Origin: Candidatus Odinarchaeota archaeon
GTDB taxonomy: Archaea > Asgardarchaeota > Odinarchaeia > Odinarchaeales > Odinarchaeaceae
Reading direction: 5' to 3'
NCBI GenBank assembly: GCA_038826135.1
Contig: JAWBON010000077.1
Location: forward strand, 1-5,388
DNA: 5,388 nucleotides
Shown here: piece by piece, positions 1 to 5,077 of the stretch
How the letters are laid out: every line of letters starts with the position of its first letter
How positions within the stretch are numbered: position 1 is the first letter of the stretch
Program-made: the position numbers and the translations under genes
The notes under the pieces: generated by a model
What the model was told of the DNA's origin: nothing
The model's database searches: none
The model's input: the letters and a program-made list of their open reading frames with translations, nothing else

Positions 1-785
1 ATTGTTATTATCCTCCCTATGTCAACCGGCTTGGGGATTTGACCGGTCAACTCTTTTACATCTAAGGGTTTTAAAGCTACTATAACAATGTTTTCCGCTT
101 TACTGCGTGTTATTATCTCCAACGCTTTAAGTTCGCCAACTATTCTACCTTTATTAAGGCCTACAACAATATGGGGGCTTACATCCAAGCCGGCTTTTGT
201 TAACGCTTTCAACGCTTTTTCAAAATCCCCGGGTTTCTTATCTAAATGATAGATTTCTCTTATAGTCTCCGTGTCACCTATTATGTCAATCATAGCGGAT
301 TCAACACCAGCCTCTTTTAACGCTTTAGCGGTAGAGTAATCTATCAAACCAGTGTGAACCGCTATCTTCATCCCTAGGTGTCTGTGAAGCTCGCCGATAG
401 CGTTTATAAAAGGAGTCAACGGCACCGCCCCGTTCATGTCAGAGCCGCCGCTTATTAAAAGACCTCTAGCCCCCTTCTTAAACAAATTTTTCCCAAGTTT
501 TAAAAGCTCTTCCGGAGTGGTGGCACTGTGCATAGACTCTAAAAGCCTTCCTTTACAATGCTCACACATCAACAGGCATCTTCTACCTGTAACTGAAACA
601 GACTGGAAGACCCCTTCCCCGTTTTTCTCAAATCCCTCAGTATCATATTTTAATATGCTGGGAGCGTAAAAATTTATAACTTCTTCATGGCATTCTCGTG
701 TCAGCCTCCAACCCCGCTCCAGGTATTCACCGTAATCCCTAGGAGAGCTGTTAAATATTCTCTGCGCTTCTTTTTCAAAACTCAT
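1..785 (-). CDS. lipS2: Radical SAM protein, LipS2-type subunit of the two-component (LipS1/LipS2) lipoyl synthase; 3'-partial, runs off the left edge
   Basis: Manual translation of the reverse strand from ATG at 785 gives 261 codons without a stop to the window edge: MSFEKEAQRIF...INFYAPS...FQSVSVTGRRCLLMCEHCKGRLLESM...GLLISGGSDMNGAVPL...IAVHTGLID...AMIDIIGD.ETIREIYHL...VSPHIVVGL..G.IVGE.KALEII... The CX3CX2C motif is C70/C74/C77 (nt 578-555). The combination S(V/L)TGxxCxLxCxHC, ISGG, HTG, DxxG and PHIxxGL matches my recollection of the Thermococcus kodakarensis TK2248/LipS2 family. The C-terminal GC(M/A)R and CC motifs reported for LipS2 would lie beyond the window. The divergent lipoate ligase supports the call. 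Confidence 0.8.
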   Translation of the reverse strand, partial: MSFEKEAQRIFNSSPRDYGEYLERGWRLTRECHEEVINFYAPSILKYDTEGFEKNGEGVFQSVSVTGRRCLLMCEHCKGRLLESMHSATTPEELLKLGKNLFKKGARGLLISGGSDMNGAVPLTPFINAIGELHRHLGMKIAVHTGLIDYSTAKALKEAGVESAMIDIIGDTETIREIYHLDKKPGDFEKALKALTKAGLDVSPHIVVGLNKGRIVGELKALEIITRSKAENIVIVALKPLDVKELTGQIPKPVDIGRIIT

Positions 786-872
786 ATTTTAACACTAGAA
801 AATTACAAGCCTGTTTTAATATTTAAAAATAGTTTTATATATTGTGTTTTTAAACTTGATAACGATCTTGAA
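786..872. promoter_or_regulatory. Divergent archaeal promoter region shared by lipS2 and the lipoate ligase gene
   Basis: 87-bp AT-rich gap between head-to-head ATGs (785 on -, 873 on +). The plus strand has TTTATATA at 834-841 preceded by an A-run. The minus strand has TTTTTAAA at 829-822 preceded by AAAAC. Each box lies 32-37 nt from its ATG. No Shine-Dalgarno is visible for either gene, implying short-leader or leaderless transcripts. Confidence 0.55.
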
Positions 873-2435
873 ATGGAAACTTGGAGAGTTGTTGACACCG
901 GTCTTCTCACAGGCGCTGAAAACATTACATATGATCGAGTTATCTTAGACGCTCGAGCGGAGGGTTTGGTTCCTAATACCTTCCGTTTTCTAAGATTTAA
1001 TCCACCGGTAGCGCTAGTAGGATATCACCAATCAATTGAACAGGAGATTCGAATCTCTTACTGTATAGAAAATAATATTGACATTAACCGGCGGATAACC
1101 GGTGGCGGTGCAATATACTTCAGCCCGGAGCATCTTGGCTGGGAGGTTTTCGCTCAACTGGATGGGGATAGATTCCCGTATAAGGTTGACCTGCTTTATA
1201 AACGGCTTTGCAATGCAGCTGTTAAAGGCCTGCGTAAACTCGGCTTGAACGCTCGTTTCAGACCTAAAAACGATATTGAAATAGGGCATCGTAAAATAAG
1301 TGGAACAGGCGGAACCAGCAACGGCGGAGCCTTCATGTTTCAAGGCACGCTCCTTGTAGATCTAGATATTAATAAAATGCTTAGAGCGTTAAGAGTCCCT
1401 GTTAAAAAACTATCTGATAAAGAAATAGACAGTCTTAAAGACCGTGTTACAACTATAAAATGGGAGCTAGGATATATTCCCTCCTACGCTCAAATAAAGG
1501 AGGCTATTTTAGAAGGCTTCAGTGAAGAGTTTAAAATCGTTTTTGAAGAGCAAGATCTTACAGAGTTTGAGAGAAAAGAGTTTTTAGATAAACTCCCCTA
1601 CTTCAACTCAAAGGACTGGGTTTACGGGATAAGATCCGCTGGCAGTCTTGAAAACTCTCTTTTCACGCTTAGAAAAACCCCCGGCGGGCTTGTTAAACTA
1701 GCTTTATCCGTGGATGTTGAATTAAACTCGATAACGTCAGCTTTCATCACAGGCGATTTCTTCGCATACCCCCCAGGAGTCATATACGATTTCGAAGCCG
1801 GTTTAAAACACATCCACCTAGACATGAAAGAAATAAATAATGTGTTAAAAAAACTGGGTGAACGTGACTTTCAAATTCCCGGCGTGAAGTTAAACGATTT
1901 TCGAAGCCTGTTTCAAGAAGCTGTTGAAAGAGTAAAATACACACGTTACGGGCTTACACTCAGCGAAATAAATAATATCTTTCTCGTAAACAGAAAACTC
2001 GACTATTTTATCGATCACGGTGTTGACACGCTTCTTCTACCTTACTGTTCGAAGCTTCTCTCCTGTAAGTTCCGACACTCGGAGGGTTGTACAATATGCG
2101 AACAATGTTCTGTAGGGGAAGGCTATAAACTCGCTTTAAAATATAATCTGAAACCTATAACAATAGTTAACTACGAGCACCTAGAGGAAAACCTGGCGGA
2201 ACTAGATAAAGCAGCCTCTAAAGGATATATAGGCTGCTGCTGCGAGCAATTCTATGAAAAGCATCAACCAGACTTTGAGAAATTTAAAACCCCAGGCCTC
2301 CTTATCAACATAGAGCAGACCACATGCTATGATCTGGGTCTTGAAAAGGAAGCCTATAAGGGCAGATTTGAAAGCCAAACCTCTATTAACACCCCGCTCT
2401 TGCAAAAAATCCTCGGATTAATATTTAAAAACTAA
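873..2435 (+). CDS. lplA: Lipoate/octanoate-protein ligase: LplA catalytic domain + LplB-like (Lip_prot_lig_C) domain + C-terminal Cys-rich DUF116-like domain, 520 aa
   Basis: From ATG 873: METWRVVDTG...N...D (typical LplA N-terminus), FLRF.PP.ALVGYHQ, RRITGGGAIY (nt ~1089-1118), PKNDIEIG.RKISGTGG with the catalytic Lys at nt 1293, and FQGTLL. The accessory domain KTPGGLVK...FITGDFFAYP spans nt ~1674-1930. The tail (nt ~2019-2432) has 9 Cys: LLLPYCSK..SC..R...CTICEQC...IGCCC...TCYDLG. The ORF-track start at 687 would add 62 non-homologous residues overlapping the lipS2 gene. Confidence 0.9.
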   Translation: METWRVVDTGLLTGAENITYDRVILDARAEGLVPNTFRFLRFNPPVALVGYHQSIEQEIRISYCIENNIDINRRITGGGAIYFSPEHLGWEVFAQLDGDRFPYKVDLLYKRLCNAAVKGLRKLGLNARFRPKNDIEIGHRKISGTGGTSNGGAFMFQGTLLVDLDINKMLRALRVPVKKLSDKEIDSLKDRVTTIKWELGYIPSYAQIKEAILEGFSEEFKIVFEEQDLTEFERKEFLDKLPYFNSKDWVYGIRSAGSLENSLFTLRKTPGGLVKLALSVDVELNSITSAFITGDFFAYPPGVIYDFEAGLKHIHLDMKEINNVLKKLGERDFQIPGVKLNDFRSLFQEAVERVKYTRYGLTLSEINNIFLVNRKLDYFIDHGVDTLLLPYCSKLLSCKFRHSEGCTICEQCSVGEGYKLALKYNLKPITIVNYEHLEENLAELDKAASKGYIGCCCEQFYEKHQPDFEKFKTPGLLINIEQTTCYDLGLEKEAYKGRFESQTSINTPLLQKILGLIFKN

Positions 2436-2539: not shown

Positions 2540-4126
2540 ATGAGCAGGATAATATTAACCGCTGATGAAACACTTATGACAGAGTACGGCGGGGCATCTT
2601 TTCTAGGCTTCATACTATGCGCTCCAAGACGGATTCTCCCCAATTTTCTGATAAAATATGTAATATGCCCGCATCCCAGAATGAGGGACGGCGAGGTTTT
2701 AGCCCCACCATACTCCCTACGAAAAGTTGAAGCCTCACTTGTTCAGAACGGGTACAGTAGAGAAGATATTAAGTTCATTCACCCTTCTAAATTGAATGAA
2801 TCAGTCTCCGAGAAAACTAGAATAATCGGTATAGACGTGGTTGACCCTATGGGGCGCGGCCCTGTCTCATGGACTTTACGCCACCTTCTAGGCGGCGGTA
2901 AACCGGCAACACAACTTGCTTTTCTCTCATTGATGAGAAGGATTAAGCCGCTTAAAGAAAAATATGGTTTCAAAGTGATTTTAGGCGGCCCTGGAGCTTG
3001 GCAGGTTACTGATAAAGAAGCTGAAACGCTAGGCATCGATGTCAGATATTACGGTCAAGCTGAGTTAACACTCCCCCAGGTAGTGGATAAACTCATCCGC
3101 GGCGAGCAAGTTCCACCAGTGGTTAAAGCCGCGCCGCCTAAACCAGAACAAGTATACCCGATACTCGGACCTGCCAGATGCGGGTTCGTTCAGATAACTG
3201 AAGGATGCGGTAGAGGCTGCAGATTCTGCGGTCCAACTCAGGTGCCTTGGAGAAGCATCCCCCTAGACATAATAGAGAAAGAAGCCAGGTTAAGCATCGC
3301 CGCCGGGGAGAGAAACCTATATCTTCTAAGCGAAGACTGGTTAAGATACGGGTCCAGCAGCTTCCGAGAGCTTAACATAAACGCATTACTGAAAATGCTG
3401 CAAACTCTCAGAAGCATACCCGGAGTGGATAAAATAGTTTCAACACATGTAAACTTCAGCACAATGAAGCTTGCAGGCGTAAAACAAGTGGAAGAATTAA
3501 ACTATTACATGGGAGTCAACGAAGATGAACCATGGATCGGCCCTCAAATAGGTTTAGAAACAGGCAGCCCCCGCCTACTTGAAAAATACATGCGCGGAAA
3601 AGTTCTACCATATACACCTCAAGAATGGCATGAAGTAGTGGTTGAAGCCTGTCAAATCCTTAAAGACGTCTACTGGTATCCCTGCATAACAATGATAACA
3701 GGATTACCGGAAGAAACCGATGATGATATAATGCTTACACTAGAACTTCTAGACGATCTTAAAGGAACACCCGCCTGGTTCTTCCCGTTATTCTTCATAC
3801 CCATAGGAACGAGCGCTCTCAGCCGTCAAGAATTCTTTAAAACATATCTTATGAATGAAGCCCGCTGGGAGCTTGTAACCAGAAGCTGGAAACTCAGCGC
3901 AGCATTTGCCTTAAAATATATTAAGCATGTAACATCAGGAGCTAAAATGTCTTTAACACAAATCTTCTTAAACAAGCTTTTCTCCAGACTATCCGATGAA
4001 ACCCTGAGATTCATAGATAAAATCGGTAGCCAACCAGCACAAATGTTAACAATGCTTAAAAACGTGGATCTCACAAAACCGGGAAAACCGTTAATGAAAG
4101 CTTTAGTATCAATAATCGCTAGGTAA
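2540..4126 (+). CDS. Cobalamin (B12)-binding domain radical SAM protein (COG1032-like), substrate unknown, 528 aa
   Basis: Long ORF with an RBS. The N-terminal region has PYSLRKVEASL, RIIGIDVVDPMG.GP, KVILGGPGAWQ and YGQAE (equivalent to the GEGE motif of B12-binding domains). The radical SAM motif is ITEGCGRGCRFC (C223/C227/C230, nt 3206-3229), followed by SEDWLRYG, IGLETGSPRLL and ITGLPEET core motifs. No DxHxxG motif is seen. Confidence 0.85.
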   Translation: MSRIILTADETLMTEYGGASFLGFILCAPRRILPNFLIKYVICPHPRMRDGEVLAPPYSLRKVEASLVQNGYSREDIKFIHPSKLNESVSEKTRIIGIDVVDPMGRGPVSWTLRHLLGGGKPATQLAFLSLMRRIKPLKEKYGFKVILGGPGAWQVTDKEAETLGIDVRYYGQAELTLPQVVDKLIRGEQVPPVVKAAPPKPEQVYPILGPARCGFVQITEGCGRGCRFCGPTQVPWRSIPLDIIEKEARLSIAAGERNLYLLSEDWLRYGSSSFRELNINALLKMLQTLRSIPGVDKIVSTHVNFSTMKLAGVKQVEELNYYMGVNEDEPWIGPQIGLETGSPRLLEKYMRGKVLPYTPQEWHEVVVEACQILKDVYWYPCITMITGLPEETDDDIMLTLELLDDLKGTPAWFFPLFFIPIGTSALSRQEFFKTYLMNEARWELVTRSWKLSAAFALKYIKHVTSGAKMSLTQIFLNKLFSRLSDETLRFIDKIGSQPAQMLTMLKNVDLTKPGKPLMKALVSIIAR

Positions 4127-4129
4127 AAC

Positions 4130-4160
4130 TTATATTTTTTGTGTGGTGAAACTACTTTTT
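4130..4160 (+). terminator. Putative archaeal oligo-T intrinsic terminator
   Basis: T6 at 4135-4140 and T5 at 4156-4160 in a pyrimidine-rich stretch directly after the stop codon at 4126. Confidence 0.4.
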
Positions 4161-4372
4161 AAATTATTTATTTACCTTTTATTTCAATAAGCTCCCCCAC
4201 TATTCTATTCTTTCAGGGCTATCTTCACAAGTCATCAACACTTTTTAGAGTATTTAAACAGATGATTCTATCTAATTTAATTCAATTAGTTTAATACTCA
4301 CGGTTAAATACGCGTTTAGTAAAAAATAATAAAAATATTTTTTAATTGTTAAAGAACTACGTCAATGTATAT

Positions 4373-4379
4373 GGAGGAG
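4373..4379 (+). promoter_or_regulatory. Shine-Dalgarno sequence
   Basis: GGAGGAG; the GGAGG core ends 7 nt before ATG 4385. Confidence 0.75.
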
Positions 4380-4384
4380 TTTAG

Positions 4385-5077
4385 ATGGATTATGAGATAA
4401 AATATAGTCCCTCATATTCAATGCTTGTAGTTAAACTTAAACCTGATGAGACAATAACCGCTGAAGCTGGTGCGATGACATATATGACTCCAAATTTAGA
4501 GATTAAAACAAGAAAAAGAGAGGAGAGCATCTTAAAATCTCTTAAAGTAGCTATACTCGGGCAGCAATCCTTCTTTGTTAATGATTATACTGCCCGGGGA
4601 GGACCAGGTGAAATAGGTTTAGTCTCAGCGCCTTTAGGGGATATCGCTAAATTAGACGTGAATGAAAAAAATGGCTACATCATTCAGCAATCCGCTTATA
4701 TAGCTTCAACACCAGGAATAGAATTAGATACAAAATGGCAGGGATTTGTTAAAGGAATCTTCGGTCAAAGCCTCTTCATGATCAAAGTGGAGGGAGAAGG
4801 TTACGTTTTTCTAAACAGTTTCGGAGCTCTAGATAAACATGTTCTAAAACCTGGTGAAAGCCTTATAGTAGATAACTATCATCTAGTAGCATTTAGTAGT
4901 TCATGCAATTATAATGTTAAAAAATTCGGTGGCTTAAAATCGACTATACTAGGAGGAGAAGGCCTAGTCACGGAGATAAAGGGACCAGGGGAAGTATATG
5001 TTCAAACAAAAAATCTTAGAGAATTTATTGAATGGCTCTGGACTCTAATAGGCCCAAGAATCAGCAGAGCGCGATAA
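4385..5077 (+). CDS. AIM24 / TIGR00266 family protein (DUF124, TRAP-like beta fold), 230 aa
   Basis: Family-typical pattern: YEIKYSPSYSMLVVKLKPDETITAEAGAMTYM, QSFFVNDYTA..GPGEIGLV..PLGDI, IQQSAYIAS..GIELDTKW.G, LFMIKVEGEG.VFL.SFGAL, L.PGE.LIVD..HLVAF, LGGEGLV....GPGEVYVQTKN. Strong RBS upstream. Confidence 0.9.
   Translation: MDYEIKYSPSYSMLVVKLKPDETITAEAGAMTYMTPNLEIKTRKREESILKSLKVAILGQQSFFVNDYTARGGPGEIGLVSAPLGDIAKLDVNEKNGYIIQQSAYIASTPGIELDTKWQGFVKGIFGQSLFMIKVEGEGYVFLNSFGALDKHVLKPGESLIVDNYHLVAFSSSCNYNVKKFGGLKSTILGGEGLVTEIKGPGEVYVQTKNLREFIEWLWTLIGPRISRAR

Follow-up and report, generated by a model that had tools for sequence, protein, structure and literature searches.

Why should a lipoate protein ligase carry, behind its two usual domains, a further stretch rich in cysteines? 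The question is raised by a contig of a Candidatus Odinarchaeota archaeon, which in its entirety (5388 bases, contig C77 of a 1.26 Mb genome that is 93% complete) is the window analysed here. Four genes are found on it, for a LipS1-type radical S-adenosylmethionine (SAM) protein, the ligase, a 528-residue radical SAM protein and an AIM24-family protein, and the nearest relatives of their products are those of Candidatus Odinarchaeum/Odinarchaeia. The ligase is of the Lpl(AB) type and is fused to a divergent DUF116 domain, the features of the fusion gene being listed below. Observed directly are the family membership of this domain, the conservation of its cysteines, its purifying selection, its predicted fold and the near-constant order in which the fused gene and lipT occur together with lipS1 and lipS2. 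The answer that we favour, tentatively and with somewhat less than even confidence, is that the domain is an iron-sulfur (Fe-S) electron relay between the flavoprotein LipT and the radical SAM clusters of the lipoyl synthases LipS1 and LipS2.

873..2435 (stop codon 2433-2435), + strand: Lpl(AB)-DUF116 fusion gene, 520-residue product (open reading frame, translation of 873..2432, Pfam)
915..1520, + strand: LplA catalytic domain, residues 15-216, with K141 in RKISGTGG (PF21948, LplA-B_cat, 154 bits)
1680..1910, + strand: LplB accessory domain, residues 270-346 (PF10437, Lip_prot_lig_C, 25.8 bits, cut-off 24)
1950..2432, + strand: divergent soluble DUF116 domain, residues 360-520 (PF01976; predicted flavodoxin-like fold)
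2046..2108, + strand: cysteine loop C392-x5-C398-x7-C406-x2-C409-x2-C412, straight after strand beta2 (alignments)
2235..2243, + strand: C455-C456-C457, end of strand beta4 (alignments)
2325..2327, + strand: C485 within the invariant TCYDLG, following strand beta5 (alignments)

The true start of the gene is the ATG at 873, because the orthologues start with METWRVVD; these orthologues are of equal length and 86%, 80% and 67% identical to the protein of the window. In the LplA domain the catalytic lysine, K141, and G50, Q53, R73, R74, N133 and D134 are invariant among 86 sequences. The curated equivalog cut-offs of NCBIfam are missed by the protein (TIGR00545, 161.9 versus 280 bits; LplAB NF053751, 110.5 versus 550 bits), as is that of the NCBIfam LplB model (35.9 bits, cut-off 65), and it is a distinct clade within the ligase family and no equivalog of the curated ligases. 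The AlphaFold2 model of the full-length protein was obtained with a predicted local distance difference test value (pLDDT) of 91.2 and a predicted template-modelling score (pTM) of 0.81.

The C-terminal extension had been assigned to DUF116 (PF01976) by the original prediction, which was read from the letters of the DNA, and the profile hidden Markov model search agrees, with 34 bits for the whole protein (residues 364-487), 35.5 bits for the isolated residues 370-520 and 37 bits in a whole-genome scan, against a gathering cut-off of 25. The extra domain had also been taken to begin at nucleotide 2019, which is too far downstream, as the models let the fold start near residue 360 (nucleotide 1950). 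The nine cysteines that had been listed (392, 398, 406, 409, 412, 455, 456, 457 and 485, numbered from the ATG at 873) are exact in the translation, but only eight of them are conserved: C392, C398, C406, C409, C412, C457 and C485 are invariant in alignments of 74, 56 and 86 homologues and C456 is a cysteine in at least 90% of the 86 sequences, whereas C455 is a cysteine in just 36% of homologues and a serine in most of the others. Within the genus the domain has a ratio of nonsynonymous to synonymous substitution rates (dN/dS) of 0.04-0.10, equal to that of the ligase part, and the family-wide mean identity to the window protein is 44.8% for the domain and 43.1% for the ligase. On these measures the domain is shown to be under purifying selection and as conserved as the ligase, and the observation of the fusion with its cysteines is far beyond chance.

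Matches to PF01976 in 201 Asgard genomes fall into two classes, namely canonical proteins with 100-166 bits, which are stand-alone or part of other proteins, and ligase-fused ones with 30-45 bits. The canonical Asgard DUF116 shares seven cysteines with the window domain (C392, C398, C406, C409, C412, C457 and C485, the CxxCxxC motif included), and the five cysteines of the C392-C412 loop align with its five N-terminal cysteines; C456 is conserved as well, but in the ligase-fused subfamily only. Two N-terminal transmembrane helices are typical of arCOG02078 (PMC5898192), a usual trait of the family that lies outside the Pfam definition of PF01976; they are missing here, where the domain directly follows LplB and is modelled without membrane helices. 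The window domain belongs to a divergent, soluble DUF116 subfamily.

In the AlphaFold2 model of the domain (pLDDT 92.4, pTM 0.88) a five-stranded parallel beta-alpha-beta sheet is formed, with all conserved cysteines directly following strands beta2, beta4 or beta5. The predicted fold is flavodoxin-like, with the cysteines at the C-terminal edge of the sheet, which would be the cofactor side; flavodoxin-like folds hold their cofactor (flavin mononucleotide, FMN, in flavodoxin) at that edge. Shape searches of the ESM Atlas gave template-modelling (TM) scores of 0.74-0.97 to DUF116 clusters, 0.74 being that of a stand-alone cluster, and of 0.69 to a polyprenyl synthetase-DUF116 cluster. The best VIA-align Z values, up to 7.4, were obtained with designed Rossmann proteins, CheY-like receivers and type II dehydroquinase, and speak for the generic fold only. 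A profile search of the sequences of the PDB gave no significant match, the best being an alignment of the CxxCxxC motif to HCAR (5dqr) at E 0.27, and a feature search of the ESM Atlas from which the DUF116 and LplA families were taken out returned weak leads only, such as Prismane (0.78). An HHpred-based study had predicted DUF116 to be a flavodoxin-like, metal-binding, electron-transfer domain (PMC5898192), and the model agrees with that prediction, which was made on other grounds.

How widely, and in which company, does the fusion occur? A phmmer search with residues 360-520 against 1.84 billion cluster representatives returned 180 proteins, nearly all of them ligase fusions of approximately 520 residues, and a profile built from 15 aligned sequences found a relative of the domain in 248 of 185,579 species genomes, in at least 15 phyla. 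Among archaea these are Odin-, Thor-, Jord- and Baldrarchaeota, Bathyarchaeia, Thermoproteota, Thermoplasmata and Altiarchaeales, and among bacteria Chloroflexota, Desulfobacterota, Planctomycetota, WOR-3, Actinomycetota, Cloacimonadota and Bacillota, among others; the carriers of the fused ligase are uncultured anaerobes from many phyla. Gene neighbourhoods were counted in the best 80 loci, where open reading frames were called and searched by blastp against queries for LipS1, LipS2, LipT and the ligase. Of 78 loci that could be assessed, 65 have as the next gene on the ligase strand, mostly overlapping the stop codon of the ligase, one for a flavoprotein resembling geranylgeranyl reductases (GGR), which corresponds to the LipT of Tanabe et al. 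(PMC10332631); LipT is elsewhere in the locus in 8 and missing from it in 5. Genes for both LipS1 and LipS2 are present in the same locus in 61 of the 80, so that the co-occurrence with lipS1/lipS2 anticipated by the original prediction is confirmed, the association with lipT, which had not been considered, being stronger still.

With 166-172 bits LipT exceeds the cut-off (158.8) of TIGR02032, the geranylgeranyl reductase family, and an alignment of 42 LipT sequences shows an invariant Cys44 and the motif GYGWLFPK, which resemble the catalytic cysteine and the YxWxFP motif of GGR (for example L016:9629-10687 (-)); these sequence features hint at a capacity for binding a hydrophobic chain that LipT may have kept. 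Loci with split genes retain the order ligase, DUF116, LipT, and since they come from long-read contigs the splits are possibly frameshift errors. One 825-residue protein reads as a ligase-DUF116-LipT triple fusion (L168:208-4698) on a single 5.3-kb contig, the first 60 or so residues of LplA being in a separate upstream open reading frame; downstream of it lie a radical SAM gene and, next, genes for TusA and a DsrE-like sulfur-relay protein. Ligase-DUF116 is also found joined to a CdhB-like domain (PF02552, carbon monoxide dehydrogenase epsilon) in P0195 (1117 residues) and P0207 (670 residues; L169:6001-8013), and the neighbours of P0207 are genes for chemotaxis and flagella, LipT and LipS being absent from its vicinity. 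Prediction of a complex between LipT (42-sequence alignment) and the DUF116 domain scored 0.01 against a mark of 0.32 and gives no answer, so that nothing follows from it either way.

The canonical proteins present a different picture. No lipoate genes were seen near canonical DUF116 in 16 loci of Planctomycetota, each taken with 9 kb on either side and most of them encoding a DUF116-polyprenyl synthetase fusion, or in 20 Asgard loci (approximately 3.3 kb each), and the hope expressed in the original prediction, that the fusion might be a Rosetta stone for DUF116, is disappointed by these contexts. That DUF116 in general is a dedicated partner of GGR-type flavoproteins was also considered and rejected, as no GGR or LipT was found near the 16 Planctomycetota loci, bar one weak match of 51 bits. 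Canonical DUF116 being away from lipoate genes, only a generic redox role is therefore transferable to the family.

The reading of the ligase-fused branch that we favour is as follows. The eight conserved cysteines would bind iron-sulfur centres, most simply two clusters, and the domain would serve the lipoate assembly pathway of Lpl(AB), LipT and LipS1/LipS2 as a built-in ferredoxin, accepting electrons from the flavin adenine dinucleotide (FAD) of LipT and handing them on to LipS2 and LipS1 at their radical SAM clusters; the ligase part would meanwhile be the platform that holds the octanoylated H-protein. LipT has already been proposed as the source of electrons for LipS1/LipS2 (PMC10332631), and flavoproteins of the GGR family work with Fe-S proteins of the same locus (PMC10821996). 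The role in electron or Fe-S supply put forward by the original prediction fits this evidence, from which we infer metal binding, the type of cluster, the partners and the direction of electron flow.

Several points weigh against an electron relay of this kind. In E. coli the Thioalkalivibrio set lipS1-slpl(AB)-lipT-lipS2 is sufficient without the domain, and the sLpl(AB) of H. denitrificans has approximately 361 residues and no DUF116 domain (PMC10332631), in keeping with what the original prediction had said of characterised ligases; the proteobacterial pathway works without the domain, which would therefore be an accessory replaceable by generic carriers. In known GGR enzymes electrons pass from ferredoxin to FAD, opposite to the proposed flow (PMC10821996), and LipT retains the catalytic cysteine of GGR. 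A comparison of residues 370-520 with Pfam (E up to 1) returned DUF116 alone, with no match to Fer4, HdrB-type CCG, Nfu, IscA or IscU, and no solved relative was found by Foldseek against the PDB (nothing under E 0.1). The triple fusion could be an assembly frameshift. Finally, in the genus of the window the cluster is split, the ligase lying approximately 30 kb from LipS2-LipT and not adjacent to it, and a second LipS2 with LipT was not found in the window's own 93%-complete assembly, perhaps because of a gap.

By taking into account that GGRs are fed by ferredoxins and that LipT has kept the catalytic cysteine, the flow could therefore run the reverse way, DUF116 being a ferredoxin-like donor to LipT and LipT the terminal reductase acting on a hydrophobic chain, for which an unsaturated C8 octanoate precursor or the acyl/dithiolane arm on a carrier protein would be candidates. 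The position of LipT within TIGR02032 and its invariant Cys44 and GYGWLFPK motif are in line with such a reaction, as is the finding that archaeal GGRs are fed by same-locus ferredoxins, some of them not using NADPH (PMC10821996), and neither gene order nor translational coupling tells the two directions apart. Reverse flow is nevertheless considered unlikely: the established chemistry of LipS1/LipS2 requires no such reduction (PMC9585515, PMC13692748), the proteobacterial pathway has LipT yet no DUF116, and canonical DUF116 has no GGR-family neighbour in the 16 Planctomycetota loci.

LipS1/LipS2 consume an auxiliary cluster as sulfur source, and its regeneration is an acknowledged open question (PMC13692748). 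The Fe-S clusters of the domain might thus rebuild these sacrificial clusters, as NfuA does for LipA, with LipT supplying the electrons for reassembly. The tethering of the domain to the protein that holds the substrate would suit this function, as would the single locus with TusA and a DsrE-like protein beside the cluster. However, eight rigidly placed cysteines in a well-packed, monomeric predicted fold resemble fixed redox centres and not a labile transfer site, similarity of the domain to Nfu, IscA or IscU is lacking, and DUF116 proteins at large are also met in unrelated settings, the polyprenyl synthetase fusions among them, so that cluster or sulfur supply, too, appears improbable. A combination has a lower probability still: ligase-DUF116 and LipT would form a self-contained lipoylation machine in which one Fe-S centre relays the electrons of LipT and the other rebuilds the auxiliary clusters of LipS1/LipS2. 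If true, such a double duty would explain the turnover of lipoyl synthase in anaerobes without a known partner of the Nfu type.

That the cysteines hold structural zinc, for which eight could make two Zn(Cys)4 sites, and that the domain is a docking scaffold or a redox or metal sensor gating the ligase, against which the full-length pTM of 0.81 suggests it is packed instead of hanging free, is very doubtful, since a CxxCxxC motif, which canonical DUF116 has too, is found more typically at Fe-S than at zinc sites (PMC5898192), and both the tight coupling to flavoprotein and radical SAM genes and the fusions to further nucleotide- or flavin-type domains indicate redox chemistry.

The electron relay has next to be seen against the remainder of the window and of the genus, of which the features are these.

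3..785, - strand: LipS1-type radical SAM lipoyl synthase, divergent, 3' end cut by the contig end (NCBIfam LipS1)
786..872: divergent intergenic region between lipS1 and the ligase gene, 87 bp (open reading frame coordinates; same layout in 3 congeners)
2540..4126, + strand: 528-residue radical SAM gene (open reading frame)
4385..5077: AIM24-family gene (PF01987, 220.7 bits)
C100:431-757 (own genome); L019:5293-5619, L020:5445-5771 and L001:6551-6877, all three - strand: Rieske genes
L139:9109-11275, - strand (= G001:C1:1245108-1247274); G013:C3:53347-55429; G024:C79:739-2824: LipS2-LipT pairs of the congeners

The pair LipS2/LipS1, as named in the original prediction, does not fit the neighbours of the ligase in this window: the divergent gene is LipS1-like, while the 528-residue radical SAM protein downstream is not LipS2. 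The 261-residue LipS1 fragment of the window scores 169 bits with the NCBIfam LipS1 model and 12.6 bits with that of LipS2, and a full-length orthologue, at 221.6 bits, is slightly under the LipS1 cut-off of 230, LipS1 being by far the best match. Contig C100 of this genome carries the rest of the gene, followed by a Rieske gene. In the layout that this genome has in common with 3 congeners the genes for the Rieske ferredoxin and LipS1 point away from ligase-DUF116, which is followed by the 528-residue radical SAM gene and, further on, by AIM24. The Rieske gene, encoding a [2Fe-2S] ferredoxin of 108 residues, comes after lipS1 on the same strand in all 4 genomes of the genus, and its product could be a further electron carrier for the cluster.

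A profile search detected in the 3 congeners a second LipS2 (250-259 bits) adjoining LipT, approximately 30 kb from ligase-DUF116, and the idea that the Odin lineage had lost LipT but kept the domain was rejected on account of these pairs. The window's own genome also contains, at C13:16834-19887, a separate and complete lipS2-lplA-lplB-lipS1 operon of the T. kodakarensis type (LipS2 333 bits, LipS1 289 bits), which brings its tally to two LipS1 paralogues, two ligases and two genes of the GcvH family (C5:2379-2762 and C1:3359-3700). The surroundings of both GcvH genes are uninformative; one of them, on C5, is adjoined by a gene for a small GTPase of the Ras family (PF00071, 143 bits; L011:2041-2586 (+)), a type of protein typical of Asgard archaea.

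The 528-residue radical SAM protein was considered as a substitute for LipS2 and rejected, as it has no LipS2 match and is beside the ligase in this genus only. It has an N-terminal B12-binding-like domain, the motif CGRGCRFC and only weak matches of the MiaB/TIGR04013 kind. Among 201 Asgard genomes, 53 have members of its family, with 1-5 copies each, and in many of the 53 there was no DUF116 match; no link between it and lipoylation was seen. In a Planctomycetota genome a relative (186 bits; L157:7577-9112 (+)) lies directly upstream of a DUF116-polyprenyl synthetase fusion (L157:9183-10928), a second independent adjacency of this radical SAM family to DUF116 that may be due to chance. Beyond the radical SAM gene an AT-rich spacer (4127..4384; G+C fraction approximately 0.31-0.33 in the windows covering it) precedes the AIM24-family gene, which stays downstream in the congeners, with other genes inserted between in some of them.

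What does the electron relay, if correct, add to the understanding of lipoate assembly? The source of low-potential electrons and the renewal of the sacrificial cluster are open questions for LipS1/LipS2, and the role of LipT has been given just as 'possible' (PMC13692748; PMC10332631; bioRxiv 10.64898/2026.10.01.755906). An eight-cysteine domain placed between ligase and LipT in approximately 250 species, and conserved at the level of the ligase, is a concrete and testable candidate for the missing component. The ligase-DUF116 fusion is unmentioned in the full-text literature matching DUF116 or PF01976, the relevant part of which does not concern lipoate, and in the lipoate-pathway literature examined. 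New here are the split cluster in the genus, the comparison of seven with eight cysteines, the negative contexts of canonical DUF116 and the neighbourhood counts. One branch of DUF116 gains its first pathway context in this way, the canonical proteins not being covered by it.

Among the closest known systems is the sLpl(AB)-LipS1/LipS2-LipT pathway (Cao et al. 2018; Tanabe et al. 2023, PMC10332631; LipS1/LipS2 of T. kodakarensis, PMC9585515), which has the same ligase made of LplA and LplB, both radical SAM lipoyl synthases and the GGR-like flavoprotein, with lipT following the ligase gene. It differs in that its characterised ligases are without the 160-residue DUF116 domain and in that the genus of the window splits the cluster, lipS1 and the ligase being here and lipS2 and lipT, in the congeners, approximately 30 kb off. 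Canonical DUF116 (COG1852, arCOG02078; Makarova et al. 2015, PMC5898192) is like the window domain in the Pfam match, the seven cysteines and the predicted flavodoxin-like fold, whereas the window domain scores lower, adds C456, lacks membrane helices at the N-terminus and forms part of a ligase protein; canonical members are stand-alone or fused to polyprenyl synthetase and away from lipoate genes.

By analogy with the flavodoxin reductase/flavodoxin couple of E. coli and with human FDX1, the donors to LipA and LIAS (PMC13692748), a flavoprotein and a small low-potential carrier are proposed to lead to a radical SAM cluster, and the E. coli carrier is flavodoxin-like in fold, as the window domain is predicted to be. 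There is, however, no kinship in sequence, the cofactor in the window protein would be cysteine-held Fe-S and not FMN, and the carrier is fused to the ligase. The GGR of M. acetivorans and its neighbouring ferredoxin (PMC10821996) offer the remaining parallel, as there too the gene for a GGR-family flavoprotein stands beside that of a dedicated cysteine-rich redox protein; the partners in M. acetivorans are conventional ferredoxins that reduce the flavin for C=C reduction, whereas the partner in the window has the DUF116 fold.

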